Under the pieces are notes generated by a model. That model did no database searches, had not been told where the DNA came from, and saw only the letters and a list, made by a program, of their open reading frames with translations. DNA of 30,182 nt from Oculatellaceae cyanobacterium bins.114. Its GTDB lineage: Bacteria; Cyanobacteriota; Cyanobacteriia; Elainellales; Elainellaceae. How positions within the stretch are numbered: the stretch's first letter is position 1; every line of letters begins with the position of its first letter. This document shows, piece after piece, positions 4,753 through 19,498 of this stretch. A program made the position numbers and the translations under genes. The stretch lies in contig JANRJA010000250.1 in the NCBI GenBank assembly GCA_033764315.1, forward strand, positions 1-30,182. Direction: 5' to 3'.

Positions 4753-5994
4753 ATGACTTCTACCCATCCTCCTCGCTCAGCGAGCGATTCCTCTGCTGAA
4801 TCTCGGCCACCTTCGACTCATCACAAAGCCAAGGCACTCAAAAGTGGGAGCCGTCGCCCTGCTAAAGAGTTGTGTAGTGAATGCGGGTTGTGTGACACCT
4901 ACTATATTCACTATGTCAAAGAAGCGTGTGCCTTTATTAATCAACAAGTAGCGGATTTAGAAGTCGAAGCTCACGGTCGCAGCCGCGATTTGGAGAATCC
5001 AGACGATATCTACTTTGGGGTCAATCAGACGATGATGGCAGCCCGTCGTGTTGAGCCGATTGAAGGCGCACAGTGGACAGGGATTGTCAGCACGATCGCC
5101 ATTGAGATGTTGAACCGGGGGCTAGTGGAAGGCGTGGTGTGTGTGCAAAACACCAAAGAAGATCGCTTTCAACCCATGCCTGTGATTGCCCGCACCCCTG
5201 AAGACATTTTGGCAGCACGAGTCAATAAGCCCACGTTGTCACCCAACCTCTCGGTGTTGGAACAGGTAGAGCAATCTGGACTGAAGCGGTTGCTGGTGAT
5301 TGGTGTAGGGTGCCAGATTCAAGCTTTGCGAGCGGTTGAAAAACAGCTAGGACTAGAAAAACTGTATGTGTTAGGTACTCCCTGTGTAGATAATGTCACC
5401 CGTGAGGGACTGCAAAAGTTTTTAGAAACTACGAGTCGATCGCCCAAAACAGTGGTTCACTACGAGTTTATGCAAGATTATCGGGTGCACTTTAAGCATG
5501 AAGACAGTTCCGTAGAAATGGTGCCCTTCTTTGGGCTAAAAACCAACCAACTCAAAGATGTGTTTGCTCCTTCGTGTATGAGCTGTTTTGACTACGTCAA
5601 CTCTCTGGCCGATCTGGTGGTGGGCTATATGGGTGCCCCCTATGGTTGGCAGTGGCTTGTGGTGCGCAACGATCGCGGTCAGATGATGCTCGATCTGGCG
5701 TGGAACCAACTTGAAACCCAACCTGTGATGTCGCAGGGCGATCGCCACGCAGCGGTGCAACAGAGCATTCCTGCCTATGACAAGGGCGTAACCCTGCCGA
5801 TGTGGGCAGCCAAACTGATGGGGGTGGTGATTGACAAAATTGGTCCTAAAGGGCTGGAATATGCTCGGTTTTCTATCGACTCTCACTTTACCCGCAATTA
5901 TTTGTATCTCAAGCGCAACCACCCTGAAAAGCTAGAGGCGCATGTGCCCGATTACGCCAAACGGATTGTGGAGCAATACGAGTTACCAGAGTAA
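4753..5994 (+). CDS. bciB: FrhB-family Fe-S flavoprotein, probable ferredoxin-dependent 3,8-divinyl (proto)chlorophyllide 8-vinyl reductase (BciB/CvrA)
   Basis: RPAKELCSECGLCDT, GAQWTGIVS, KPTLSPNL, GVGCQIQALR, GTPCVDN and SCMSCFDY..LADLVVGYMG motifs of the cyanobacterial BciB/HCAR-like family. Confidence 0.85.
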   Translation: MTSTHPPRSASDSSAESRPPSTHHKAKALKSGSRRPAKELCSECGLCDTYYIHYVKEACAFINQQVADLEVEAHGRSRDLENPDDIYFGVNQTMMAARRVEPIEGAQWTGIVSTIAIEMLNRGLVEGVVCVQNTKEDRFQPMPVIARTPEDILAARVNKPTLSPNLSVLEQVEQSGLKRLLVIGVGCQIQALRAVEKQLGLEKLYVLGTPCVDNVTREGLQKFLETTSRSPKTVVHYEFMQDYRVHFKHEDSSVEMVPFFGLKTNQLKDVFAPSCMSCFDYVNSLADLVVGYMGAPYGWQWLVVRNDRGQMMLDLAWNQLETQPVMSQGDRHAAVQQSIPAYDKGVTLPMWAAKLMGVVIDKIGPKGLEYARFSIDSHFTRNYLYLKRNHPEKLEAHVPDYAKRIVEQYELPE

Positions 5995-6014
5995 TTTTCT
6001 TTCATTGCGGAAGA

Positions 6015-6066
6015 TTCATCTGATTGGGTGAAGAGTGGGTATAGCCCCCTCACACCTGACATCCTC
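6015..6066 (+). promoter_or_regulatory. Conserved leader of TIR-WD40 copy 1 (degenerate palindrome plus TATAGCCCCCTCA plus ACATCCTC)
   Basis: TTCATCTGATTGGGTGAA (6015-6032); homologous to 11146-11198 and 14682-14734. Confidence 0.7.
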
Positions 6067-9000
6067 ATGAGCGATGTTTTCATCTCGTATTCCCGCAAAG
6101 ACAAAGACTTTGTCAAAGTTTTGCATCAAGCCCTAACCGCCAGCACTTATAACGCCTGGGTAGATTGGGAAGATATTCCCCTAACCGCAGATTGGTGGCA
6201 GGAGATCAAAAGTGGCATTGAGCAAGCCGATACCTTTGTCTTTGTCATCAGTTCAGATTCAGTGCGCTCTAAAGTCTGTGGTCAAGAGCTAGACCATGCG
6301 ATCGCCCACAATAAACGCCTCATCCCGATTGTGCGGCGCGATGGATTTGACTCCGAATTGATTCGTCCAGCCTTGGGCAAACACAACTGGTTGTTTTTTC
6401 GAGACGAAGATGAGTTTGATCAAGCCTTTCAAGCACTTGTCAAAGCCCTCGACACCGATTTAGATCATGTCAAGCGTCACACTCGCTTGTTAGTTAAAGC
6501 GATCGAGTGGGAGCATCAACACCACAATCCTGATTTGTTGATGCGAGGCAGTGAGTTAGAACAGACGATTCAGTGGCTAACTCAGAGCAGTAACAAAGAA
6601 CCGCGATCGACCGAGTTGCAACTGGAATACGTCAACGAAAGCCGCAAAGCTGAACTCGCTCAACGGGATGCCGAAATTAAGCGACAAAAGAAAGCTCGAA
6701 AGGCGATCGCCACTGCTCTGGTTGGGGCTGTTTTCTGTTTGATTATCGCGATCGCATTAGGGTTATTTTCGTTTAGCCAATATCAAACCGCTGAAGCTCG
6801 CCGTAAAGAAGTTGAACAAAGCCAAATTGAAACGCTTAGCACCTCTGCCGAAGCATTTCTCAATGCCAATCACGGGCTTGACGGGCTGCTCTATGGACTT
6901 CGCGCCGCCCGCAAATTGCGCAATACGGAAGGTGTAGCGTTGGAAACGCAGATGAAGGTCACGGCTGCGCTGCAACAAGCACTGCATGGTGTACAGGAGC
7001 GCAATCGGATGGAGGGACATCGTGATGAGATTTGGAATCTTGCGGTTAGTTCAGATGGTAAAACGATCGCATCTGCTAGCCGAGACAATACGGTCAAGCT
7101 GTGGAATTTAGAAGGTCAACTGCTCGCAACATTGACGAAACATACATTACCCGTGAGCGGGGTCAGTTTTAGTCCAGATAGCCAAATCGTCGCCACGACT
7201 GGTGAGGACAAAACCATTAACCTGTGGGATTTGAAGGGTAACTTGTTGCGATCGCTAACGGGACACTCAGCAAATGTTATTAACGTTAACTTTAGTCCAG
7301 ATGGGAAACAACTAGTTTCGACTAGTTTGGATGGCACAATTAAATTTTGGAGTGTAAATGGTACGCTACTAAAGACACTTAATGCCCATCGTTACGGAAC
7401 ATGGAGTGCTAAATTTAGCCCCGATGGCAAGCTACTAGTCACTTGTGGTAACGATAATACTGTTAAGCTGTGGAACTCGTTTGGTGAGCTGTTAAAGACG
7501 TTTGAAGGACACCAAAATAATGTTAGACGAGCAATCTTTAGCCCAGATGGTCAGGTGATTGCTTCGGCAGACCGAGATGGTGTGATTAAACTGTGGAACT
7601 TGAGCGGCAAAAAACTTGCAACTATGCAAGAACACACCGATGCGATTTGGGGATTAAGCTTTAACCCGGATGGACAGACCCTTGTGTCTGCGAGTGAAGA
7701 CGGCACCGTTAGATTTTGGAATTTAGATGGCAAAGAAGTGGAAACTCTGCGAGGGTTTTATCCTGCGATAGATGCCCTTGGTTTTAGCCCAGATGGTCAA
7801 ACCTTAGTAATGGGCGATCGCGGGGGTGTAGTCAAACTGTGGAATCTGAATCAATTGACTCTAAAGCATGATGCTGAAGTGACAGGTCTTAATTTCAGTC
7901 CAGATGGTCAAATGGTGGTGACGGGCAGCAATGACCTCACAGCAAAGCTATGGAGTATTGATGGCACAAAGCTTAGAACCTTTAGAGGCTATAGTTCTGG
8001 GATCAGTTGGGTTAGCTTCAGCGCAGATGGAAATCACATCAACACCGGAACATATGGTGGAACGATTAAACTTTGGGATTTGAACGGCAAAGAATTGAGA
8101 GCTACATCGGAGCAGCCTCGTTTCAAAATTGTGAGTTTTAGCCCTGATGGTCAAACCATTGCTTTTGCTGAGGAGGGTGGCATGATCAGGCTTGAAACTT
8201 CAAACGGTAAACAGTTGGCCTTCGTTAAAGGACACGATGCCTTTATTAATATCATTCAATTCAGCCCCGATGGCAAAACGATTGCATCACCTAGCGATGA
8301 CGGTACAGTTAAGCTTTGGGATTTACAGGGCAAAAATTTGGCAACGCTGAGGCAAGGTAGTGCTGTAGCGCAGGTTAGCTTTAGCCCGGATGGCAAAACG
8401 ATTGCCTCGGCAGGTGCTGACAGAACTGTTAAACTTTGGACTCTAGATGGTAAAGAAATCAGAACTCTGAGAGGGCACAGCGGCAGTGTCAGAAGTGTTA
8501 CTTTTAGCCCTGATGGAACGTTGATTGCCTCTGGTGCAACCGATGGCATGGTTAAACTGTGGACTATAGATGGCAACGAGTTAGCAACCCTAAAGGGACA
8601 TCAAACTTCCGTCTTGGTATTACGCTTTAGCCCGGATGGAAAAACAATTGCCTCTGGCAGTCAGGAGGGATTGGCAATTTTATGGAGTGTAGATTTTGAC
8701 GAGTTGCTGACTCACAGTTGTCATGTGCTGCGGGGGTATCTGAGCAATAATCCAAATCTTGCTGAGAGCGATCGCCACCTGTGCGATGGACTTGAGCGCG
8801 ACTGGGTAGCAGAAGGGGAAGAACTGGCTAGGGCAGGAGATGTGCCCAGGGCGATCGAGCGATTTCGAGAAGCCCTCAAACGCAATTCCAACCTAAAGTT
8901 TGATCCTCAGATCAAAGCCCAGCAAATTGCAGCCGTCATTCCATTAGATCAGGCTGAGCGGCTGATAGAGAGAGAAGATTTAGAAGGTGCAACCCAAGCC

Positions 9001-9489
9001 TTTCAGAAGGCGTTGGAGTATTATCCGGGGTTAAACTTCGACCCTAAAACCAAAGCCTATCAAGAAGTTGCCATTGTCAAAGTGCGACAAGGAGATGAGC
9101 TGGCTTACGAAGATCAACTTAGTTGGGCTGAGGTTCAACAGTTGATGGAGTTATACACCAAAGCACAGGAGCTTGACCCGAAGGTTGATATTCCTGCTCA
9201 AGGTTTGAATAATATTTGCTGGCAGGGTTCTCTCCAGGGACATGCAACTGAGGTGCTTGATAGTTGTGAAAAAGCAGTTGCTCGCAGTCCTGGTGATAGT
9301 AATATTCAAGATAGTCGTGGTCTGGCTAGAGCACTCACAGGTAATACACAAGGGGCGATCGCAGATTTTCAATTTTTTGTTGACAAAACCAACGATGAGG
9401 AATTGAAAGCGCAACGACAGGGTTGGATTGAAGCATTACGTCGAGGTGAGAATCCATTTACTCCAGAGGAAATTGAGACATTAATGTAG
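6067..9489 (+). CDS. TIR - TM - 14x WD40 - TPR-like protein, copy 1
   Basis: TIR_2 start DVFISYSRKD with CGQEL helix; basic KRQKKARK then a hydrophobic helix; 14 GH...FSPDG...LW repeats; TPR-like tail. ATG 6067 chosen because it aligns with both paralogue starts. Confidence 0.92.
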   Translation: MSDVFISYSRKDKDFVKVLHQALTASTYNAWVDWEDIPLTADWWQEIKSGIEQADTFVFVISSDSVRSKVCGQELDHAIAHNKRLIPIVRRDGFDSELIRPALGKHNWLFFRDEDEFDQAFQALVKALDTDLDHVKRHTRLLVKAIEWEHQHHNPDLLMRGSELEQTIQWLTQSSNKEPRSTELQLEYVNESRKAELAQRDAEIKRQKKARKAIATALVGAVFCLIIAIALGLFSFSQYQTAEARRKEVEQSQIETLSTSAEAFLNANHGLDGLLYGLRAARKLRNTEGVALETQMKVTAALQQALHGVQERNRMEGHRDEIWNLAVSSDGKTIASASRDNTVKLWNLEGQLLATLTKHTLPVSGVSFSPDSQIVATTGEDKTINLWDLKGNLLRSLTGHSANVINVNFSPDGKQLVSTSLDGTIKFWSVNGTLLKTLNAHRYGTWSAKFSPDGKLLVTCGNDNTVKLWNSFGELLKTFEGHQNNVRRAIFSPDGQVIASADRDGVIKLWNLSGKKLATMQEHTDAIWGLSFNPDGQTLVSASEDGTVRFWNLDGKEVETLRGFYPAIDALGFSPDGQTLVMGDRGGVVKLWNLNQLTLKHDAEVTGLNFSPDGQMVVTGSNDLTAKLWSIDGTKLRTFRGYSSGISWVSFSADGNHINTGTYGGTIKLWDLNGKELRATSEQPRFKIVSFSPDGQTIAFAEEGGMIRLETSNGKQLAFVKGHDAFINIIQFSPDGKTIASPSDDGTVKLWDLQGKNLATLRQGSAVAQVSFSPDGKTIASAGADRTVKLWTLDGKEIRTLRGHSGSVRSVTFSPDGTLIASGATDGMVKLWTIDGNELATLKGHQTSVLVLRFSPDGKTIASGSQEGLAILWSVDFDELLTHSCHVLRGYLSNNPNLAESDRHLCDGLERDWVAEGEELARAGDVPRAIERFREALKRNSNLKFDPQIKAQQIAAVIPLDQAERLIEREDLEGATQAFQKALEYYPGLNFDPKTKAYQEVAIVKVRQGDELAYEDQLSWAEVQQLMELYTKAQELDPKVDIPAQGLNNICWQGSLQGHATEVLDSCEKAVARSPGDSNIQDSRGLARALTGNTQGAIADFQFFVDKTNDEELKAQRQGWIEALRRGENPFTPEEIETLM

Positions 9490-9530: not shown

Positions 9531-10232
9531 TTACTCCTCTGGTGGAGTCCCCAATGCCTTGAGTTGAGCTTTCAGCCGTTCAATTTCTTCCTCTGCGGCT
9601 TCTGCTCGCAGGCGTTGTTGGTCTGCGATGAGGCGTTGTTGCTCTGCGATCGCGCGTTGTTGCTCTGCCCGTTCCGCTATTTGCTCATAGGTTTCAAAGG
9701 GTTGCCCATCAGGACGGTACAACACCAGTTGCCCCTCCAAACTCAACGTGAAGCGAACTCCTAACCGAGGACTGATCCAGCTGTCGATCTCCTCGATGGC
9801 TTCGAGCTGACCTTCCTGTCGTTGAAAGCCTCCTAAACTGAGCCGATCGGGGTCATAGATGTAATATTCTTCGACTCCATAGCGATCGTAAAACTGAAAC
9901 TTGCGGGTCATCTCTGGAATCGTGTTGCCCGGAGAGATAACTTCAAAAACGACTTGAGGGGCAACGTTCTCTTCTTTCCACTGCTGGTAACTGCCCCTAT
10001 CGCCCTTGGGTCGCCCAAAAATCACCATAACATCGGGGGCTTGCCGCAATTTATTGTTGCCCTCAATCGGATACCAGAGGAGATCTCCTGCAACAAAGAC
10101 ATTTGGGTCATTAAGAAACAACCAATCACAACCCTTCTTGATGTAGACAATCACCTCAAACTGTTTGGTATTGTCTGCCATCGGTTGACCGTCAGAGTCG
10201 GGATAGTGAACAGGGGTGGAAATCGTAACCAT
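9531..10232 (-). CDS. Uma2-family (PD-(D/E)XK fold) putative endonuclease
   Basis: YPDSDGQPMADN, APDVMV, PQVVFEVISPGN, FYDRYGVEEYYIYDP and a coiled-coil tail. Confidence 0.92.
   Translation of the reverse strand: MVTISTPVHYPDSDGQPMADNTKQFEVIVYIKKGCDWLFLNDPNVFVAGDLLWYPIEGNNKLRQAPDVMVIFGRPKGDRGSYQQWKEENVAPQVVFEVISPGNTIPEMTRKFQFYDRYGVEEYYIYDPDRLSLGGFQRQEGQLEAIEEIDSWISPRLGVRFTLSLEGQLVLYRPDGQPFETYEQIAERAEQQRAIAEQQRLIADQQRLRAEAAEEEIERLKAQLKALGTPPEE
9610..9672. repeat. Three 21-nt tandem repeats in the Uma2 coiled-coil tail
   Basis: AGGCGTTGTTGGTCTGCGATG / AGGCGTTGTTGCTCTGCGATC / GCGCGTTGTTGCTCTGCCCGT, encoding heptads such as AEQQRAI-AEQQRLI-ADQQRLR. Confidence 0.85.
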
Positions 10233-10296: not shown

Positions 10297-11040
10297 TTAC
10301 TCTGGCAAGTTATCAGGGTCAACACCGAGCGATCGCACATACTCTGCTAACCGTTCTGCTCGCTGGCGTTCTGCCTCCGTTCGCTGGCGTTCGATCACAA
10401 GCTGACGTTGCGTATCATAAACCTGCTGATCAGGCATGGGGTACGCCTGCCCCTGAGCGTTGTGCCACAACAGCACTTCTTGTTCAATGCCGCCAATTAC
10501 CTGCCGACCACGACCTAGCCCCAGACCGACTTCTGGCATCCAGTACGGTTCACCAATTTGCAGATGGTAGGTTTCACCCGCTAGTTTATAAACCTCAAAC
10601 GGTTGATGGCGGTCACGCTGCCAAAACTCTGGGTTGTAGATCACATAGTAGAGAACACCGAGCCGAGCATAGATCTTCAATTTCTCGTCATACTCCTCGT
10701 TGGGACGGTGAGACACCATCTCTAACACCAGAGTCGGCGCGACATAATTTTCCTCCCAAGTAGCATAGCTCCGACGTGACTTGCCCCCCTTCTTGCGCTC
10801 AACCCCCAAACTCAAAAACCCGTCGGGCACGACAGGAACCTTGGGACTAACTCCAGTCGTGTGATAGACCGCCATATCGACCCCAAAGTACCAATCCATG
10901 CGGTCTGACCAAAGGAGAGCTAGAGAAAATAGCAATAGGTTAGGCAGTAAATTTTGGTCTTCGTTATCCACAGGAGTATCGTCAGAGCACGGTAGCTCTT
11001 CGGTGCTGGGTAAAGTGGTATCAAGGGGATGTGAAACCAT
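10297..11040 (-). CDS. Uma2-family putative endonuclease (different subtype from its neighbour)
   Basis: LPCSDDTPVDNEDQ, VPDGFLSLGV, PTLVLEMVS, YARLGVLYYVIYNP and a RAERLAEYVRSLGVDPD tail. Confidence 0.92.
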   Translation of the reverse strand: MVSHPLDTTLPSTEELPCSDDTPVDNEDQNLLPNLLLFSLALLWSDRMDWYFGVDMAVYHTTGVSPKVPVVPDGFLSLGVERKKGGKSRRSYATWEENYVAPTLVLEMVSHRPNEEYDEKLKIYARLGVLYYVIYNPEFWQRDRHQPFEVYKLAGETYHLQIGEPYWMPEVGLGLGRGRQVIGGIEQEVLLWHNAQGQAYPMPDQQVYDTQRQLVIERQRTEAERQRAERLAEYVRSLGVDPDNLPE

Positions 11041-11145
11041 AGGAATGAATTGAATTCCCGATAGTACTTATTCTAATGCAGCGTCTGCTTGTTCCTCGTT
11101 CATTAAGGAGTTGTAACCCCGTTAATGGCTCTCTGTTGCAGAAAA

Positions 11146-11198
11146 TTCGCCCGATCGGGTGAGGATTAAGTATAGCCCCCTCAAAACTCAACATCCTC
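11146..11198 (+). promoter_or_regulatory. Conserved leader of TIR-WD40 copy 2
   Basis: TTCGCCCGATCGGGTGAG (11146-11163), TATAGCCCCCTCA, ACATCCTC-ATG. Confidence 0.7.
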
Positions 11199-14100
11199 AT
11201 GAGTGATGTTTTTATTTCCTACTCTCGCAAAGACAAAGCCTTTGTTGAAGCGCTCCATGCTGCCCTTCAAGCGTGCGATCGCACCACCTGGGTCGATTGG
11301 AGCAACATTCCGTTAACTGCCGATTGGTGGCAGGAGATTAAAACAGGGATCGAAGCGGCGGATACATTTGTTTTTATACTCAGTGCTGACTCCGTTGCGT
11401 CCACGGTGTGTCGTCAGGAAGTTGAACATGCCGTTCTCCATCACAAGCGATTAATTCCCGTTGTGTGGCGCGATGATTTTGACAATGAGTTAGTACATCC
11501 GGCTCTGCGAAAGCACAACTGGCTGTTTATGCGAGAGGCAAATGATTTTAACACCACATTTGAGCAGTTATTGAAAGCGATCGACACAGATTTAGAACAT
11601 GTCAAACAACACACGCAACTGTTATTAAGAGCGATCGAGTGGAAGCACAAACACTACAGCCCTGATCTATTGCTACGGGGACGAGAGTTAGAGTTAGTGA
11701 TTCAATGGCTCACGCAAGATGCCGATAAAGAGCCGCGATCAACTCAACTGCAACGCGAGTATGTCAACGACAGCCGCAAAGCCGAAGTTGCCTACCGCGA
11801 AGCCGAGATTAAACGTCAGAAAAAAGTTCGTAAAACGATCACGGCTATGTTGGCGATCGCCATTTTCTGTTTCTTCATTGCTACTGGATTGGGATTATTA
11901 GCTGTGGGTCAATATCAAAGGGCTGAAGCCCAGCGTCAAGAGGCGACCCTGAGCGAAATTAAGGCGTTAAATACCTCCTCAACAGCACTGTTGGCATCCG
12001 ATCATCCCTTTGATGCTCTGCGAGAAGCAATGCGAGCCGCCAGTCGAGTTAAGTCCGTTCATTGGATTCCAGATCACACTCAAGCACAAACCCGGTTATC
12101 GTTGCAGCAAGCGATCGACGCTGTGCAAGAACTCAATCATTTGGAGGGTCACACTAACATTGTTTCTCAAATCCGCTATAGCCCCGATGGGCAAACTCTG
12201 GCCTCTGCCAGTTGGGACAACACGATAAAACTGTGGAACACGAACGGGCAACTGTTAAAAACATTGAGAGGTCATACTGATGTGGTCACAAGCATCGACT
12301 TTAGCCCAGACAATCAACAGTTAGTGTCGGCGGGTCGAGATAACATCATCACCCTGTGGGATCTGAATGGGCAGCAATTAAGAACCTTTAGTGGGCACTC
12401 ACCCTTTGCTTTTGATGTGAAGTTTAGCCCTGACGGTAAAGCGATCGCCTCGGCTGGGGCTGATGGCACTATTAAACTATGGGATTTGGCAGGACACGAG
12501 TTAAACACCTTCAGAGGTCATTCTGGCTTTGTCAATAGTGTCAGTTTTAGCCCCGATGGTAAAACAATCGCCTCAGGTGGATCGGACAAAATCATCCGAT
12601 TGTGGAGCGTGGATGGACAAGTATTACAGACCTTCACAGGTCACAGCGATAGGATAGCTCAAGTGACCTTTAGTGCTGATGGTCGCCATTTAGCGTCTAC
12701 TAGTATGGATGCGACCATTAGACTGTGGAGTGTGGATGGACGGGAACTGAAAACATTTAGCCAGCATGGGTCAGCCATTGCTATCAGCTTTAGCCCCGAT
12801 GGACAACAATTGGCGATCGCTCACGCAGAAGGTGTGATCACCCTTTATGACTTAGCAGGTCAACCCATCGCCACCTTTGAGAGCACAGGAGAGCAACTTC
12901 TTAGTGTTTGTTTTCATCCTGATGGCAAAACTCTTGCGGTTGGCAATAGCAATGGCACAATCCAGCTTTGGAATCTAAATCGCTTAGGACCCATAACCCT
13001 TGAAGGGCATTTAAAGACTATTGCGGCTGTGACTTTTAGCCCCGATGGTCAAACGCTTGTCTCTGCCAGCGAAGATAACACCATTCGCCGTTGGAGCCTG
13101 GATGGCAAATCTCTCAATGTTATTAACGGGCATCAAAAACAGCTCACCACGGTTGAGGTTAGCCCCAATGGTCAAATTCTGGCTTCAGCTAGCCTGGATG
13201 GCACGGTCAAACTGTGGAACCAAGATGGACAAGAACAAGCCTCGATGCAAGCCGATCCGCTGGGAGTTTTCAGTCTGAGTTTTAGTCCCGATAGTCAAAC
13301 CCTTGCCTCTGCTGGGCTTGATGGCATTTTGAAATTGTGGAATCTAGACGGTCAGATCTTGAAACAATTTCCAGGGCAAAATTATGGAATCACAACCATC
13401 AGCTTTAGCCCCAATGGTCAGGCAATCGCCACTGGTGGATATGATAACCTGGTTCGCTTGTGGAGCCTTCAGGGCCAAGAATTAAAAACACTGAAAGGAC
13501 ATACCAGTTACATCTACAGCGTTAGTTTTAGTCCTGATGGCAAAACGATCGCCTCTGCTAGCAACGATCGCACGATTAAACTGTGGAATTTAAACGGAGA
13601 AGAACTACAAACGCTGCGAGGACATACCAGCCTTGTGAGTAGCGTCCGCTTTCACCCTAATGGAACCGTTTTACTTTCCGCTAGTGATGACAAAACAATT
13701 AAGTTGTGGAGTCTTGATGGTCAAGAACTCAAAACCTTGCAAGGGCACACCGATGGAATCGCCAGTGCGGTCTTTAGCCCCGATGGTCAGACTATCGCCT
13801 CTGGTAGTGCAGATAAAACCATCAAACTGTGGGATGCCAAAGTTCTCAATTTTGGCGAATTAACCACTCAAGGATGTCGCTGGCTAAATGACTATTTAAT
13901 TAGCCATCCAGAAGATTTAGAAGACATTGCCATTTGTCAAACTTCAGCAAACCGCCCTCAAGCCGCTTTTACCTTTGTCACGCGAGGCGAAGATTTGGCA
14001 AGCCAGGGCAAGGTTCAGGAGGCGATCGCCCAGTTTCAATTGGCAAACCAGTGGGATCCGCAATTGCACCTTGATCCACAACAAACCGCTGACCAGTTTG

Positions 14101-14657
14101 CAACTCAAGCCCATGTAAGAAAACTGGTGGCTGACGGAGAGGCACTTGCCAGAGCCAATGATATTCAAGCGGCGATTGCCAAATTTCAAGAGGCACAACG
14201 GTTAGACTCCAGCCTCACCTTTGACGCCACCCAGAAAGCAACTCAACTCGCCACCACAATACAGATGGCTCAGGGAGTTTTGCTGGCACGCCAGGGCAAC
14301 ATCAAAGAGGCGATCGCCATCTACAAAGAGGTTCAACGCCTTGACGCTCATGCCATTTCTGTTCAAGCGTGGGATAGTCTTTGTTGGCGTGGCAGTCTCC
14401 ACGGATTCCCCCAAGAAGTCGGTTTTGCCTGCGAAAAAGCAGTTGCCCTCTCTCGCCAAGACCCATCGACTTTAGAGAGCCGGAGCGTAAATCGAGCGTT
14501 ACGACACAACTTTAAGGGAGCCATTCAAGATCTGGAAACCGCTTTACAACACACGACCGATGAGTCATTGAAAGCCAGATGGAATCGTTGGTTAAAGATG
14601 CTTCGTGCCAATCAAACCCCCATCACTCCCGAAGAAGTTGAGAATCTGCTGAATTAA
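11199..14657 (+). CDS. TIR - TM - 14x WD40 - TPR-like protein, copy 2
   Basis: DVFISYSRKD and CRQEV helix; KRQKKVRK then TM ITAMLAIAIFCFFIATGLGLLAV; 14 WD40 repeats; TPR-like tail. Confidence 0.92.
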   Translation: MSDVFISYSRKDKAFVEALHAALQACDRTTWVDWSNIPLTADWWQEIKTGIEAADTFVFILSADSVASTVCRQEVEHAVLHHKRLIPVVWRDDFDNELVHPALRKHNWLFMREANDFNTTFEQLLKAIDTDLEHVKQHTQLLLRAIEWKHKHYSPDLLLRGRELELVIQWLTQDADKEPRSTQLQREYVNDSRKAEVAYREAEIKRQKKVRKTITAMLAIAIFCFFIATGLGLLAVGQYQRAEAQRQEATLSEIKALNTSSTALLASDHPFDALREAMRAASRVKSVHWIPDHTQAQTRLSLQQAIDAVQELNHLEGHTNIVSQIRYSPDGQTLASASWDNTIKLWNTNGQLLKTLRGHTDVVTSIDFSPDNQQLVSAGRDNIITLWDLNGQQLRTFSGHSPFAFDVKFSPDGKAIASAGADGTIKLWDLAGHELNTFRGHSGFVNSVSFSPDGKTIASGGSDKIIRLWSVDGQVLQTFTGHSDRIAQVTFSADGRHLASTSMDATIRLWSVDGRELKTFSQHGSAIAISFSPDGQQLAIAHAEGVITLYDLAGQPIATFESTGEQLLSVCFHPDGKTLAVGNSNGTIQLWNLNRLGPITLEGHLKTIAAVTFSPDGQTLVSASEDNTIRRWSLDGKSLNVINGHQKQLTTVEVSPNGQILASASLDGTVKLWNQDGQEQASMQADPLGVFSLSFSPDSQTLASAGLDGILKLWNLDGQILKQFPGQNYGITTISFSPNGQAIATGGYDNLVRLWSLQGQELKTLKGHTSYIYSVSFSPDGKTIASASNDRTIKLWNLNGEELQTLRGHTSLVSSVRFHPNGTVLLSASDDKTIKLWSLDGQELKTLQGHTDGIASAVFSPDGQTIASGSADKTIKLWDAKVLNFGELTTQGCRWLNDYLISHPEDLEDIAICQTSANRPQAAFTFVTRGEDLASQGKVQEAIAQFQLANQWDPQLHLDPQQTADQFATQAHVRKLVADGEALARANDIQAAIAKFQEAQRLDSSLTFDATQKATQLATTIQMAQGVLLARQGNIKEAIAIYKEVQRLDAHAISVQAWDSLCWRGSLHGFPQEVGFACEKAVALSRQDPSTLESRSVNRALRHNFKGAIQDLETALQHTTDESLKARWNRWLKMLRANQTPITPEEVENLLN

Positions 14658-14681
14658 GTCTCTTCAATCTCCTACGGAAAA

Positions 14682-14734
14682 TTCACCCGATCGGGTGAAG
14701 AGTTGGATATAGCCCCCTCACAACCAACATCCTC
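14682..14734 (+). promoter_or_regulatory. Conserved leader of TIR-WD40 copy 3 (perfect 18-bp palindrome)
   Basis: TTCACCCGATCGGGTGAA (14682-14699) is its own reverse complement; then TATAGCCCCCTCA and ACATCCTC-ATG. Confidence 0.75.
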
Positions 14735-17700
14735 ATGAGTGATGTTTTTATTTCCTACTCCCGCAAAGATAAAGCCTTTGTCAAAGTTTTGCACCAAGCC
14801 CTGACCGCCAGCACTTACAACGCCTGGGTGGATTGGGAAGATATTCCCCTAACCGCAGATTGGTGGCAGGAGATCAAAAGTGGCATTGAGCAAGCCGATA
14901 CTTTTATATTTGTCATCAGTTCAGATTCAGTTCGTTCTAAAGTTTGTGGTCAAGAGCTAGACCATGCGATCGCCCACAATAAACGCCTCATCCCAATTGT
15001 GCGGCGCGATGGATTTGACTCCGAATTGATTCGTCCAACCTTAAGCAAGCACAACTGGTTGTTTTTTCGAGAAGAGGATGATTTTGAGCAAGCGTTTCAG
15101 TCACTCGTTAAAGCCCTCGACACCGATTTAGATCATGTCAAGCGTCACACTCGTTTGTTAGTTAAAGCGATCGAGTGGGAGCATCAACACCGCAATTCTG
15201 ATTTGTTAATGCGGGGCAGCGAGTTAGAACACACGATTCAGTGGCTAACTCAGAGCAGTAACAAAGAACCGCGATCGACCGAGTTACAACTGGAATACGT
15301 CAACGAAAGCCGCAAAGCTGAACTTGCTCAACGGGATGCGGAAATTAAGCGACAAAAGAAAGCTCGAAAGGCGATCGCTACGACTTTGGTCGGTGCCTTG
15401 GTCTGTTTGATGATTGCGATCGGATTAGGACTCTTTTCATTTAGCCAATATCAAACGGCTGAAGCCCAGCGGCAACAAGCAACCATCAGTGAGATTCGAG
15501 CAATCACAACTTCCTCCAATGCCTCGTATGACTCCAATCGAGGACTGGATGCGTTGACAGAAGCGTTAAAGGCAAGAAGCCGCTTAGACTCAGCACCTTG
15601 GGCGGATGAGGCAACTCGCCAGCAAGTGAGACTGTCGTCGCAGCAAGCCGTTTACGATATCAGGGAAAAGAATCGACTGGAAGGACACCTCGACGCAGTT
15701 CAAGGTCTCAGCTTTAGCCCTGATGGTAAAGCGATCGCCTCAGCCAGCTTTGATAAAACCATTAAACTGTGGAGTTTGGATGGATATGGAATCAAAACTC
15801 TGAGAGGACATAGGTCTCGGGTCTATAGCGTGAAATTTAGCCCTGACGGCAAGATGTTAGCGTCTGCTAGCGGAGATAGAACCATTAAACTTTGGAACTT
15901 AGAAGGACAGGAACTTCAAACATTTCAGAATATTAATTCAATCTTTGCGATTGACTTTAGCCCCGATGGAAAAACCCTTATTTCTAGTAGTTTTGATTCT
16001 ACTGGTGAGGGTGTAATCGGGTTGTGGAGCTTAGAGGGTCAGCTTAGGAGAACGATTAAAACCTCTGAAGCTTCAAGCGACACTGTGAGCTTTAGTCCTG
16101 ATGGCACAACGATTGCGATCGCCAGTGATAAAACAGTTAGACTCTTTAGCTTGAATGGTCAAGAACTCAAGACGCGAGAATTTAGCGGTTCCATTACCGA
16201 TCTAAGTTTCAGCCCAGACGGTGAAACCATCGTTTGCTCTACTGATGATGGCAACATCAGTGTTTGGAATATTGAGACTCAAGAATTCAAAACATTCAGA
16301 GCAATTCAAAGTGGAAGTTTTCATAGTGTGAGTTTTAGCCCCTATGGCAAAACCGTCGCGTCGTCTGACTCGAATGGAATGATTGCAGTTTGGACACCTG
16401 CTGGACAGATGCTCACAACGTTTCAGGGAGGATATGGCGGTCGGAGCAGTGTTGTTCGGTTTAGTCCTGATGGTCAAACAATCGCTTACGGTCATGCTGA
16501 TGGCAGTGTCACACTTTGGGGGTTACAAAATCAGGAACTCAGGACATTTCAGGGTCATGATGGCTTTGTTAGAGGGGTCAGTGTTAGTCCTGATGGCAAA
16601 ACGATCGCCTCTGCCAGTGCTGATCAAACCATCAAGCTCTGGACTGTAGATGGACAGGTTATCAAAACATTGCAGGGGCATACTGATGAAGTTACCACAG
16701 TCCGTTTCAACCCGGATGGCAAAATAATCGCCTCTGGTAGTGCAGACAAAACCGTTAAACTGTGGACTGTGCAGGGTCAACTCCTTGCAACATTAACGGG
16801 TCATACCGATTGGGTAAATGATGTTCAATTTAGTCCTGATGGCAAAACCCTTGCAAGTGCGAGTTGGGATGGAACCATTAAACTGTGGAATTTAAGCGGG
16901 CAAGCAATCAGGACATTCAAAAATAATGGACTGGGAGTATTAGGAATCAGTTTTAGTCCCGATGGTCAAACCATTGCGGCTGCAAATGCCAATTGGGATA
17001 AAACGGTCACACTTTGGAGTGTTAAGGGTGAATTGCTCAACACTCTTAAGGGACATAATGCTGCAATCACGGGTGTGAACTTTAGCCCAGATGGCAAGAT
17101 GATTGCCACAGCCAGTGACGATAGAGTCATTAAACTCTGGAGTTATCCAGAGGGTCGAGAATTAAGCTCGTTTAGAACACGTATTCAAGTCAGTATGGTA
17201 AGGTTTAGCCCTAATGGTCAATTTCTTGTAACCGCCAGTAAGGACAACACCATTAAATTTTGGACGTTAGACGGTCAAGAACTAAAAAGTTTAAGAGGGC
17301 ACACAGGGTTAGTCCGTGACATCAGCTTCAGTCTTGATGGCAAAACCCTTGCTTCTGCTAGCGAAGATAGAACGATTAAGCTCTGGAATGCTACGATCCT
17401 TGACGAGGAACAGCTCATGACACGAGGATGTCAGTGGACGCAGGAGTATTTGATCCTTCATCCTGAGATTTTGCAAACGACTGAAGCGTGTCAATCTGAT
17501 GTGCTCTTTACCCAGGCTGTACCCACCTTGATGGCTCAGGCAGAAGACCTGGCACGAGATGGGGATACTCAAAGTGCGATCGCCAAACTTCAAACGGCTT
17601 TAGATTGGAATCCTCAATTAGACATTAATCCCGAAGAAACCGTTCAACAATTTGCGGTCAGAGGTCAGGCCGAACAACTGATTGTCGAGGCTGACCGATT

Positions 17701-18082
17701 AGCATCACAAGGCAAGATTCGAGAGGCGATCGCATTCTACACAGAGGCTCAGGCACTTGATCCAGATTTGCAAATTTCTGCTGACTCATGGGATATCCTC
17801 TGTTGGTATGGTAGTCTGCGCAATTTTGCTCAAGAGGTCGTAGTGGCTTGCGATCGCGCCGTTGAGTTGTCGCCTAACGATTGGTCTTCTCCTGAAAGTC
17901 GTGCTGCGAATCGAGCTTTACGAGGTGACTTTAAGGGAGCGATCGCAGATCTGGAGAAGGCGATCGCGAATGGCATACCCGATGAGGAATCTAGAACGAG
18001 GTGGCAACGGTGGATGACAACATTACAAGCTGGCAAAAACCCATTAACTACCGATGAAATTGAGGCAATGCTGAGTGAATAA
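14735..18082 (+). CDS. TIR - TM - 14x WD40 - TPR-like protein, copy 3
   Basis: N-terminal ~217 aa nearly identical to copy 1; TM helix; 14 WD40 repeats; TPR-like tail one unit shorter than copies 1 and 2. Confidence 0.92.
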   Translation: MSDVFISYSRKDKAFVKVLHQALTASTYNAWVDWEDIPLTADWWQEIKSGIEQADTFIFVISSDSVRSKVCGQELDHAIAHNKRLIPIVRRDGFDSELIRPTLSKHNWLFFREEDDFEQAFQSLVKALDTDLDHVKRHTRLLVKAIEWEHQHRNSDLLMRGSELEHTIQWLTQSSNKEPRSTELQLEYVNESRKAELAQRDAEIKRQKKARKAIATTLVGALVCLMIAIGLGLFSFSQYQTAEAQRQQATISEIRAITTSSNASYDSNRGLDALTEALKARSRLDSAPWADEATRQQVRLSSQQAVYDIREKNRLEGHLDAVQGLSFSPDGKAIASASFDKTIKLWSLDGYGIKTLRGHRSRVYSVKFSPDGKMLASASGDRTIKLWNLEGQELQTFQNINSIFAIDFSPDGKTLISSSFDSTGEGVIGLWSLEGQLRRTIKTSEASSDTVSFSPDGTTIAIASDKTVRLFSLNGQELKTREFSGSITDLSFSPDGETIVCSTDDGNISVWNIETQEFKTFRAIQSGSFHSVSFSPYGKTVASSDSNGMIAVWTPAGQMLTTFQGGYGGRSSVVRFSPDGQTIAYGHADGSVTLWGLQNQELRTFQGHDGFVRGVSVSPDGKTIASASADQTIKLWTVDGQVIKTLQGHTDEVTTVRFNPDGKIIASGSADKTVKLWTVQGQLLATLTGHTDWVNDVQFSPDGKTLASASWDGTIKLWNLSGQAIRTFKNNGLGVLGISFSPDGQTIAAANANWDKTVTLWSVKGELLNTLKGHNAAITGVNFSPDGKMIATASDDRVIKLWSYPEGRELSSFRTRIQVSMVRFSPNGQFLVTASKDNTIKFWTLDGQELKSLRGHTGLVRDISFSLDGKTLASASEDRTIKLWNATILDEEQLMTRGCQWTQEYLILHPEILQTTEACQSDVLFTQAVPTLMAQAEDLARDGDTQSAIAKLQTALDWNPQLDINPEETVQQFAVRGQAEQLIVEADRLASQGKIREAIAFYTEAQALDPDLQISADSWDILCWYGSLRNFAQEVVVACDRAVELSPNDWSSPESRAANRALRGDFKGAIADLEKAIANGIPDEESRTRWQRWMTTLQAGKNPLTTDEIEAMLSE

Positions 18083-18172
18083 CTGGCATGCAACAGGGGT
18101 TTTATTTCCCTGACTGGGGTGGGCAAAATCGACCCTTGGGTATACTCAAGACAGTCACTTGCCGTGCAATTT

Positions 18173-19498
18173 ATGGCTCTCTTTAAGCTCCCCCGGCTCA
18201 AGTTTTGGCAGCGATCGCCTGCATCCAATGCTTCTGGTATTGCTCCAGCGCAACCCATTCAACCGCCAACTCCACCGTCCCCGCAGCCGATTGTGCCCCA
18301 GGTTAAATCACTAACCGCGTTAGAACGGGAGATGGAAGCAGAGGCTAAGCGATTGCGAGTCCATCCCACTTATCCAATGGCTCCCAAACGTCGCCCTAAC
18401 AGGTTGAACAAGCTAATGTGGCTGGCAATTTTGGTGGGTCTTCCGGTGGGAGTGCTGTGGGTCGTGAACTTGCCCTATCCGCCAATTCGTTATCCTGTGG
18501 CGCGAACGGCTCCAATTTTGTTGTTGCCCAGCTACATGAGCATTGATAGTAACTATCGACAGGCGATCGCTGCGGTAGAGCAAGCTAAGCAATTTATTGA
18601 TAATCCCACCAGTGCCGCCGATCTGGATTTGGGTCAACAAAAAGTGCGTGAGGCTCAAGATCGGCTGGATGCCCTTCCCCTTGACCTACTCAATACCTTT
18701 CCGCAATCTCGCTATTGGTGGTATGACTGGCGGTTTAGTCAAAGCGGATTTAACAACGCCCGTGCTGAGGTAGGGCGATTGCAAGCTAAGGTTCTGCAAG
18801 AGCAAAATGCTCAAACTCTTTTAATTGATTCAGAGCAGGCAATTACCACTGCTAAACAGCAGTATCAACAGGCAACTACTCCGCTAGATAAGCAAATGGC
18901 GATCGCCGATTGGCGTTCTGCGTTAGATCAATTCCTTCAAATTCCCGGTCAAACGCTGGCGGGTCGCACCGCTCAACAAAAGCTGCAAGCCTATCAACGC
19001 GACTTTGAGGAAATCGTGGGGTTAGCGGCGGGTAATGAACGAGCCAGCACGATGATTGAGTCGGCACGGCAATTTGGCTCACAAGCCGCACAAGCCAGTC
19101 AAAATCCACCCCACTCAGTCGCCGAATGGCAACGAGTCGAAAAATTGTGGCAGGACGCGATTCAGCGATTAGAGCAGATTCCGCCAACTGACTTGACTGG
19201 ATATGCTGAATCTCAAAAGTTGTTAGCGACCTACACCGCTAATCTAGAACAAATCAAAGTGCGACGACAGGCTGAGGCGGATTCAGTCAGGGTGTTTCAG
19301 CAAGCTCAACAAGAGATTGAATTGCTGCAAGCCTCCATTCCCAATGATGGCAATATCACCAACATCAATCGCACAATTAGCCAACTACAAAGCATTATCA
19401 ATCAGCTCAACCAGGTACAGGAAGGCACAACCGTCTACTTAGAAGCACAAAGCCTGAGACTATCCGCCCAAAACAAGTTGAACCAGTTGCAACCCTAA
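18173..19498 (+). CDS. Hypothetical single-pass membrane protein with a Gln/Ala-rich helical C-terminal region
   Basis: Long ORF; Pro-rich N-terminus; basic PKRRPNR then hydrophobic LMWLAILVGLPVGVLWVV; repeated W..A...L.QIP helical units. ATG 18173 preferred, GTG 18119 possible. Confidence 0.75.
   Translation: MALFKLPRLKFWQRSPASNASGIAPAQPIQPPTPPSPQPIVPQVKSLTALEREMEAEAKRLRVHPTYPMAPKRRPNRLNKLMWLAILVGLPVGVLWVVNLPYPPIRYPVARTAPILLLPSYMSIDSNYRQAIAAVEQAKQFIDNPTSAADLDLGQQKVREAQDRLDALPLDLLNTFPQSRYWWYDWRFSQSGFNNARAEVGRLQAKVLQEQNAQTLLIDSEQAITTAKQQYQQATTPLDKQMAIADWRSALDQFLQIPGQTLAGRTAQQKLQAYQRDFEEIVGLAAGNERASTMIESARQFGSQAAQASQNPPHSVAEWQRVEKLWQDAIQRLEQIPPTDLTGYAESQKLLATYTANLEQIKVRRQAEADSVRVFQQAQQEIELLQASIPNDGNITNINRTISQLQSIINQLNQVQEGTTVYLEAQSLRLSAQNKLNQLQP

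Follow-up and report, generated by a model that had tools for sequence, protein, structure and literature searches.

Oculatellaceae cyanobacterium bins.114 carries three long open reading frames (ORFs) for paralogous TIR-WD40-TPR proteins on the + strand of contig JANRJA010000250.1, of which positions 1 to 30,182 (30,182 nucleotides, nt) are termed the window here. These genes, termed copies 1, 2 and 3 (A1, A2 and A3), probably form a conserved cluster in which gene conversion between copies 1 and 3 has left layered N-termini and in which copy 1 is chimeric. A preliminary description of the sequence had taken copy 3 for the mosaic. The genome holding the window, G000, is a draft assembly (251 contigs, 90.7% complete). 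We compared it with G001, from the same genus, whose copies 1 to 3 (locus L040) are termed B1, B2 and B3, and with G011, from another genus, whose copies 2 and 3 (locus L041) are termed C2 and C3. All three window proteins share one layout: a TIR_2 domain at amino acids (aa) 4–125, a conserved three-helix linker, a transmembrane (TM) helix at about aa 214–237, a WD40 array and a TPR tail.

A bounded tract of identity between copies 1 and 3

In a codon alignment of the three copies (offset of copy 3 minus copy 1, 8668 nt), A1 and A3 were 0.93–0.98 identical in every 90-nt window from 14780 to ~15365, versus 0.62–0.73 for A2 and A3 within the tract. Beyond ~15365 the A1–A3 windows dropped to 0.87, 0.81, 0.70, 0.52 and 0.44, and past gene nt 722 (15456) the two genes are about 50% identical. 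Over gene nt 43–640, they differ at 34 of 598 positions (94.3% identity versus 67.1% for A2 and A3), and their TIR domains are 95% identical. The offset and the near-identity from about 14780 to 15380 had been noticed in the preliminary description and held up here; it had counted 11 amino-acid differences in the first ~217 residues, where the near-identity stands but the number is 12 (17 in the first 245 residues).

Sliding-window identity and a MaxChi scan with 1063 informative sites delimited the segment, with 14782–15456 as the best solution (chi-square 164; reached by 0 of 500 permutations, whose maximum was 23.5). Within it, 190 of the 203 informative sites join A3 to A1; outside, 484 of 860 join A3 to A2 and 376 join it to A1. 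Third-codon-position identity in the tract is 0.859 between A1 and A3, compared with 0.46 to copy 2 and 0.60–0.63 between orthologues, and the tract similarity can therefore not be ascribed to selective constraint. For comparison, the flanking syntenic genes of G000 and G001 are 76–85% identical, with third-position identities of 0.53–0.65. The raised identity is bounded and extends to synonymous sites, as expected of gene conversion. The earlier proposal of recombination or gene conversion between copies 1 and 3, which are not neighbours, with the TIR-linker part made alike and the WD40 and TPR regions left untouched, is supported by MaxChi and by the synonymous divergence given below.

Evidence for a chimeric copy 1

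Comparison in 40-aa windows assigned different parts of A1 to different relatives. Residues 1–233 are 85–98% identical to A3 and B1 versus 36–72% to P0096, a 1150-aa metagenome protein found by a search with the A1 C-terminus. From aa 234 to ~1090, P0096 matches at 68–100%, with A3 at 25–58% and B1 at 27–63%. The last ~47 aa are again closest to B1 (96%, with 63% to P0096). Here the nucleotide sequence (9310–9486, the last 59 codons) agrees with B1 at 143 of 177 nt and a third-position identity of 0.66, as is usual for orthologues here, whereas the 60 codons ahead of it are 46% identical to B1.

Separate trees of the segments gave correspondingly different placements. In the N-terminal tree (17 proteins), A1, A3, B1, B3, C3, P0009, P0010 and P0014 form an eight-row clade (support 100/99), and the approximately unbiased (AU) test rejects A1 with the P0096 subfamily (p = 0.001). 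In the body tree (aa 238–620; 17 proteins), A1 pairs with P0096 (100/100) inside a six-member subfamily (100/100) and the AU test rejects A1+B1 (p = 4e-8), while A3 stays with C3, P0009 and P0010 (100/100). The 5' junction of A1 lies in the motif QY(Q/R)TAEA at the outer TM end, where B1 has a 7-residue gap, and the 3' junction lies near DSRG(L/V)ARA; both motifs are conserved across subfamilies. Copy 1 appears, from these comparisons, to be a chimera of a copy 3-type N-terminus, a ~2.5-kb sensor body from another subfamily and a tail orthologous to that of B1.

At E <= 1e-90, and with at most 37 candidates scored per genome, the P0096-type body was not found in the other 56 genomes of the order. 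Scanning a genome collection with the copy 1 body returned 63 loci, the best at 42–46% identity and none a close relative, and scanning metagenome DNA with the N-terminal module returned 2 loci, both distant.

Copy 3 across genomes

The three-gene cluster recurs with matching flanking synteny in G001, as do copies 2 and 3 in G011; counting G000, the cluster is kept in 3 of 57 genomes of the family that were searched. Copy 3 of every cluster genome bears the N-terminal type that A1 and A3 have in common. The whole combination of copy 3 N-terminus, body and tail recurs in C3, P0009 and P0010, with G011 lacking a copy 1 at the locus. In B3 and P0014, the copy 3 N-terminus sits on a second body type, their two bodies pairing with each other, and B3 also keeps the copy 3 tail (P0014 lay outside that tree). 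Since copy 3 of G011 has the copy 3 N-terminal type too, copy 3 is not the mosaic, and it appears to be an ordinary orthologue over its full length. With 12 outgroup paralogues added, the N-terminal tree recovered a copy 1 plus copy 3 clade (100/98), a copy 2 clade (100/99) and a clade uniting the three copies (98/98). The C-terminal tree gave clean orthologue clades: {A1,B1} at 99/99, {A2,B2,C2} at 91/90 and {A3,B3,C3} at 100/99.

As a candidate for copy 1 of G011, we considered an 891-aa ORF upstream of a CitMHS gene; it was rejected as a TM-less TIR-WD40 protein with P0069 as nearest relative (49%). The products of the G011 gene at L041 1391–4066, which neighbours the cluster, and P0069 are relatives without a TM, whose TIR and linker lead straight to the WD40 array via a coiled segment. 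The CitMHS transporter gene downstream of the TM-less G011 gene also precedes B1 in G001.

The preliminary description instead made copy 3 the recipient, a copy 2-like gene into which one tract from copy 1 had been copied, with one breakpoint at the membrane boundary. Within G000 this has something to commend it: A3 goes with A1 in 14782–15456 and slightly with copy 2 outside (the excess of 484 over 376 sites, by which copy 3 beyond the TM is indeed nearer copy 2), and its first 26 nt and Ala14 equal those of copy 2. We nevertheless consider it very unlikely, as the comparison of orthologues contradicts it. C3, P0009 and P0010 have the same N-terminal type on a copy 3 body, C3 in a genome without a copy 1 at the locus. 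The drop after the TM, read as a switch back to copy 2, is caused by the foreign body of copy 1, against which an old paralogy is seen. The tail that had been called copy 2-like looks so largely because of the long branch of A1: path lengths from A3 in the C-terminal tree are ~1.2–1.3 to copy 2, ~1.29 to B1 and ~1.95 to A1, so that the copy 3 C-terminus is equally far from B1 and copy 2. Nor does a single event with one breakpoint describe the N-terminus, in which an old module of nt 1–722 is overlain by two recent tracts that stop short of the TM and are interrupted by an island.

Two probable layers of exchange

Comparison with the orthologues separated an old from a recent layer. Over nt 43–640, the paralogues A1 and A3 (94.3%) are closer than the orthologues A1–B1 (84.1%) or A3–B3 (81.8%); B1–B3 are 80.3% and A3–C3 78.9% identical, and the copy 1 and copy 3 sequences are 65–70% identical to copy 2. 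We sorted the informative sites of the quartet A1, A3, B1 and B3 into concerted, orthologous and other. Their numbers, in this order, were 17, 0 and 0 in gene nt 43–300; 1, 5 and 1 in nt 301–375; 8, 0 and 1 in nt 376–640; 1, 7 and 0 in nt 641–722; and 13, 11 and 12 beyond nt 722. Two concerted tracts thus alternate with a 75-nt island and the TM segment, both of which keep orthologue-specific states (Fisher test versus the tracts, p = 3.5e-5 for the island and p = 1.9e-6 for the TM segment, both segments having been picked after viewing the data). In the TM segment A3–B3 are 86.6%, A1–B1 85.0% and A1–A3 79.3% identical.

The tract tree unites A1 and A3 (96/98), and the AU test rejects both A1+B1 (p = 0.011) and A3+B3+C3 (p = 0.007); the tree of island plus TM segment unites A1 with B1 (91/95). 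Nei-Gojobori estimates of synonymous divergence (dS) in the tracts are 0.17 for A1–A3, 1.27 for A1–B1, 1.17 for A3–B3 and 1.61 for B1–B3, with saturation towards copy 2. In island plus TM segment, dS of A1–A3 is 0.90. Moreover, A1 and A3 hold 14 derived nucleotide states in common versus B1 = B3 = C3 in the first 760 nt. The TIR-linker-TM module (nt 1–722) thus appears to have been common to copies 1 and 3 already around the split of G000 and G001, and the two copies seem to have been re-homogenised much later, in G000 only, over the two tracts. The recent conversion stops at ~15374, at the predicted cytoplasmic margin of the TM helix; the outer boundary of the membrane coincides with the old junction alone.

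For the old step, we infer that copy 3 was the donor and copy 1 the recipient, since this type of module is the native one of copy 3 orthologues and not that of the P0096 subfamily. For the recent step, a donor direction read from a raw count of 23 versus 9 was dropped, as that count is biased by B1-specific changes. Conversion may recur between copies 1 and 3, and not 2, because only 1 and 3 keep enough nucleotide identity; its restriction to this pair fits identity-dependent recombination. A HIP1 site (GCGATCGC) lies exactly at the end of the recent tract in both copies (15371–15378 and 6703–6710), which may be coincidence because the window has 60 HIP1 sites, ~2 per kb. Among the WD40 repeats, within or between genes, we found no recent homogenisation (off-diagonal matches of at most 81%, in short stretches).

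Could a single old event followed by uneven substitution rates, without recent conversion in G000, have produced this pattern? The B1–B3 dS of 1.6 is near the orthologue level, so the similarity in module type is mostly old, and the segments were delimited post hoc. Against this stand the 14 derived states, the A1+A3 clade with the AU rejection of orthologue grouping, and a dS of 0.17 beside 0.90 in one reading frame, and we regard the single event as very improbable. Slightly less credible still is an artefact in which short-read assembly collapsed or cross-joined the similar 5' regions. The locus is known from the draft assembly alone; the 34 differences in 598 positions are nevertheless patterned, with orthologue-specific states in island and TM segment, both copies lie in unique flanks on one contig, and the independent assemblies of G001 and G011 show the same copy 3 architecture. 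That no recombination took place, and the TIR-linker part merely evolves slowly or under strong purifying selection, would fit the low non-synonymous divergence (dN) of 0.010 between A1 and A3 in the tract and the rank of the module as best conserved part of the family, yet is hardly tenable, with a paralogue dS ~7 times below that of orthologues (1.2–1.3) in the same segment, saturation of copy 2 under the same constraint and a fivefold difference in dS (0.17 versus 0.90) between neighbouring segments of the module.

The 5' ends and their upstream element

At the start codon copy 3 sides with its neighbour. As had been reported, the first 26 nt of A3 are the same as in A2, with five synonymous differences from A1 (at nt 6, 15, 18, 21 and 24), and Ala14 (GCC) is shared with copy 2 only among the three copies. 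In the first 42 nt, 6 of the 7 differences between A3 and A1 show the A2 state, and 7 differences in 42 nt compare with a rate of 4% in the tracts (binomial p = 0.0013). The states at nt 18 and nt 41 (Ala14) occur in A2 and A3 only among the eight genes. The identical A2–A3 run begins ~11 nt before the ATG; farther upstream, A3 resembles B3 and not A1 or A2. These data lend modest support to a short exchange of sequence between copy 3 and the adjacent copy 2.

An element of ~60 nt precedes all eight genes in the three genomes (window, L040 and L041). It consists of TGCGGAAAATT, the palindrome CACCCGATCGGGTG, AAGAG, N5 and TATAGCCCCCTCAC and is followed by the ATG; complete copies in G000 occur at only three sites, all ahead of the three paralogues. 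The element probably serves these genes as their private operator or promoter, although it holds no match to the sigma-70 promoter consensus. The element also bears on the start of A1, which we place at ATG 6067 and not at GTG 6028 because the paralogues all open with MSDVFISYSRKDK and the non-coding element occupies 6005–6066. Between element and ATG, B1 and B2 carry an insertion of ~100 nt (L040 ~5960–6068 and ~9615–9724). The two insertions are alike by eye and missing from the other six genes, which hints at an exchange of 5' regions between copies 1 and 2 in G001.

Domains, membrane topology and putative function

The TIR_2 domain (PF13676) matches with 95–102 bits across the copies (101.3 bits, E = 6.7e-29; Pfam cut-off 28). 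WD40 repeats number at least 10–13 per protein by Pfam score and ~14 when counted by eye on the alignment, and TPR repeats occupy the final ~200 aa of each copy. An AlphaFold2 (AF2) model of A3 aa 1–260 (predicted local distance difference test score, pLDDT, 90.3) has the TIR domain at 1–129, helices at 132–150 and 161–173, and an unbroken helix at 183–259 that runs through the TM. Its nearest folds by Foldseek are the TIR domains of SPARTA, SARM1, AbTir and MyD88 (E-values from 3e-7, TM-score to target at most 0.86). Residue E74 is at least 90% conserved among 35 module sequences and aligns with the Glu of the W/C-x-x-E motif of Cat1 (9mud) and AbTIR (8g83), which we take to be the catalytic Glu.

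All eight proteins have one hydrophobic segment. Six Lys or Arg residues precede the TM versus one behind it, which suggests that the TIR domain is cytoplasmic and the WD40-TPR part periplasmic. Conservation across the family is highest in the N-terminal module. The family is large (31 matches to the module within the G000 genome), and other proteins carry this module joined to CHASE2 or dCache sensor domains. For the first 245 aa, Pfam returned TIR families only and no STAND or AAA NTPase, in line with an AF2 model of TIR plus helices. Beyond the TIR domain itself, the window proteins matched no catalogued defence system in PADLOC or NCBIfam; the PADLOC match to ThsB (E = 3.7e-10 over 77 residues) is at generic TIR level.

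Organisation of the locus

Coordinates are collected in the table. The neighbouring genes are largely housekeeping genes (accA, folE, an SDR gene, an FrhB-like gene and sbcC). Among the cluster genomes compared, only G000 has the pair of Uma2-family genes between copies 1 and 2, which in G001 are directly adjacent. These Uma2-family genes (restriction-endonuclease-like) give weak matches to PADLOC PDC-S03. Immediately 3' of copy 3, a 459-aa ORF (18119–19498) has no Pfam, NCBIfam or PADLOC match; a counterpart follows B3 in G001 (80% aa identity) and none follows C3 in G011.

Table. Features of the TIR-WD40-TPR locus in the window (nt, gene positions; quartet, sites of A1, A3, B1 and B3)
Feature	Position	Strand	Basis or remarks
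Upstream element, copy 1	6005–6066	+	palindrome-like CATCTGATTGGGTG, then TATAGCCCCCTCAC, then ATG; alignment of 8 upstream regions
Copy 1 (A1)	6067–9489	+	ORF map, paralogue alignment
Copy 1 N-terminal module, copy 3 type (TIR aa 4–125, helical linker, single TM)	6067–6788	+	identity, trees
Copy 1 partner of putative recent tract 1	6109–6366	+	quartet 17:0
Copy 1 partner of putative recent tract 2	6442–6706	+	quartet 8 concerted, 0 orthologous, 1 other
Copy 1 body, P0096-like (juxtamembrane helix, ~14 WD40, most of TPR region)	6789–9309	+	identity, trees
Copy 1 tail, orthologous to B1 tail	9310–9489	+	nucleotide comparison
Two Uma2-family (PF05685) genes	9531–10232 and 10297–11040	-	Pfam, ORF maps
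Upstream element, copy 2	11136–11198	+	alignment of 8 upstream regions
Copy 2 (A2)	11199–14657	+	architecture like A1 and A3; orthologue of B2 and C2; outside recent tract
Upstream element, copy 3	14672–14734	+	includes 18-nt perfect palindrome TTCACCCGATCGGGTGAA at 14682–14699
5' patch common to A2 and A3	14724–14775 (~-11 to +41 of ATG)	+	37-nt identical run, Ala14
Copy 3 (A3)	14735–18082	+	ORF map, paralogue alignment
Putative recent conversion tract 1, TIR domain	14777–15034 (nt 43–300)	+	quartet 17:0, A1+A3 clade, dS 0.17
Unconverted island, orthologue-specific states kept	15035–15109 (nt 301–375, 75 nt)	+	quartet 1 concerted, 5 orthologous, 1 other
Putative recent conversion tract 2, helical linker	15110–15374 (nt 376–640)	+	quartet, AU, dS
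TM segment, old layer only, outside recent tract	15375–15456 (nt 641–722)	+	quartet 7 orthologous, 1 concerted
Copy 3 own body (juxtamembrane helix, WD40 array, TPR tail)	15457–18082	+	orthologous to C3, P0009, P0010

Comparison with known systems

Sequence exchange and gene conversion occur in clustered plant TIR-NLR and other NLR (nucleotide-binding leucine-rich repeat) genes and in fungal NACHT-WD40 families of the HNWD/HET-E type. Like those, the window genes are tandem or near-tandem receptor-like paralogues with an effector domain and a repeat sensor; their tracts are bounded at domain borders, and the signalling ends are similar where the repeat sensors differ. Unlike them, the window genes are bacterial, have a TM helix and an N-terminal TIR domain but no NTPase domain, and their WD40 repeats lack recent homogenisation.

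Conflict systems with TIR, WD40 and STAND components are described in multicellular bacteria in parts of PMC7159879, PMC8195603 and PMC10907252, the first of which (Kaur et al. 2020) sketches a general conflict-system framework; a limited literature search found no description of the TIR-TM-WD40-TPR architecture or of conversion in it. By eye, five cyanobacterial nSTAND1/AAA-like/caspase/trypsin-WD40-TPR proteins have the same chassis as the window copies: a linker of the pattern LLRG..L..A..WL, a single hydrophobic stretch that resembles a TM, then a juxtamembrane helix, the WD40 array and a TPR tail whose end reads DSRGLARALTG..GAI.DF...KAQRQ.W..AL..G.NPFT. The copy 1 tail is, again by eye, closely like that of P0165. 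P0165 itself combines this kind of tail with caspase and nSTAND1 parts, and its tandem WD40 repeats are nearly identical, which points to homogenisation of repeats and contrasts clearly with the diverged repeats of the window. The cytoplasmic part of the window copies, unlike that of nSTAND1-type conflict proteins, is TIR plus linker only, and the P-loop STAND NTPase that stands between effector and repeats in STAND conflict proteins was not found in their first 245 aa.

With the enzymatic TIR proteins (AbTir, SARM1, SPARTA TIR-APAZ, Cat1 and Thoeris ThsB), the window proteins have the TIR fold in common and, with Cat1 and AbTIR, the aligned Glu (E74); none of the partner genes of these systems was seen among the window genes. 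The Thoeris NCBIfam model ThcB4 scores 25 bits against a cut-off of 220 and the retron TIR model 34 against 600. Animal Toll-like receptors offer an analogy of architecture: a repeat sensor, a single TM and a TIR domain, which in the window proteins is predicted to lie across the membrane from the sensor. In the window proteins, however, the order is reversed, with an N-terminal TIR domain, and the sensor is WD40 plus TPR and not leucine-rich repeats; the TIR fold is the sole common part.

Discussion

Layered conversion between copies 1 and 3 of a conserved cluster, with a chimeric copy 1, would have proceeded in at least two layers. In an old step, before G000 and G001 split, copy 1 would have gained the copy 3-type TIR-linker-TM module (nt 1 to ~722), its 3' junction falling in QY(Q/R)TAEA, where the TM helix ends on the outer side. 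In a recent step in the G000 lineage, copies 1 and 3 would have been homogenised over nt 43–300 and 376–640, sparing the 75-nt island and the TM segment, and the adjacent copies 2 and 3 may have exchanged ~50 nt around the start codon. The proteins could bind a ligand outside and transmit the signal via the continuous helix of the model, leading to TIR oligomerisation and NAD+ cleavage. The matched N-termini of copies 1 and 3 may be selected, for example for mixed TIR assemblies, or may be a neutral by-product.

Several observations weigh against this account. G001, although of the same genus, has other sensor bodies in all three copies (53–60% nt identity; 55–60% for copies 2 and 3), and G011, from another genus, matches the G000 bodies of copies 2 and 3 (72–74%); the N-terminal module of copy 2 is likewise 80.8% identical to G011 versus 73.4% to G001. 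The history of the locus is therefore more tangled than a simple species tree. B1 is the sole copy 1 orthologue in the genomes searched, and since P0096 is known as a protein alone, the mapping of both junctions in copy 1 is at the resolution of amino acids. The lineage that replaced its body may be G000 or G001. The final ~100 aa of B1 are of P0096 type and the remainder of B1 is like copies 2 and 3, which weakly favours an ancestral P0096-type copy 1 that was overwritten step by step. The borders of tracts, island and TM segment were picked after viewing the site patterns, which makes the AU and Fisher values post hoc; the AU test for island plus TM segment does not reject A1+A3 (p = 0.087), the weaker evidence there; and the donor quartet of the recent event (A consensus, B1, B3 and C3) is a star in the tracts (9:10:9). 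The same WD40-TPR tail also occurs on nSTAND1, caspase and trypsin proteins, five of them with a TM-like stretch likewise placed by eye, and the draft state of the assembly has been mentioned above.

A more far-reaching possibility, which we put forward tentatively, is that the locus is a receptor cassette. A chassis of private promoter element, TIR-linker-TM module and C-terminal tail would be kept matched between paralogues by recurrent conversion, and the ~2.5-kb periplasmic WD40/TPR sensor bodies would be exchanged between lineages at QY(Q/R)TAEA and DSRG(L/V)ARA. Receptors that differ in their sensors could then, through their matching N-termini, join in a single TIR signalling oligomer. 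If true, such a locus would parallel, in a bacterium, the way in which eukaryotic immune receptors diversify their sensors around a fixed signalling part.

Gene conversion between paralogues is in itself ordinary; the interest lies in the receptor family and the modular pattern. Domain-restricted gene conversion and sensor swapping are classic in eukaryotic immune-receptor clusters. Layered conversion with a chimeric copy 1 would place the same pattern, with orthologues serving as controls, in bacteria, in a family of single-pass TIR-WD40-TPR proteins that is as yet uncharacterised. With its mapped junctions, a recent event dated by dS (0.17) and a corrected polarity, this family would become usable for the question of whether the signalling ends of bacterial TIR receptors stay compatible as their sensors vary.

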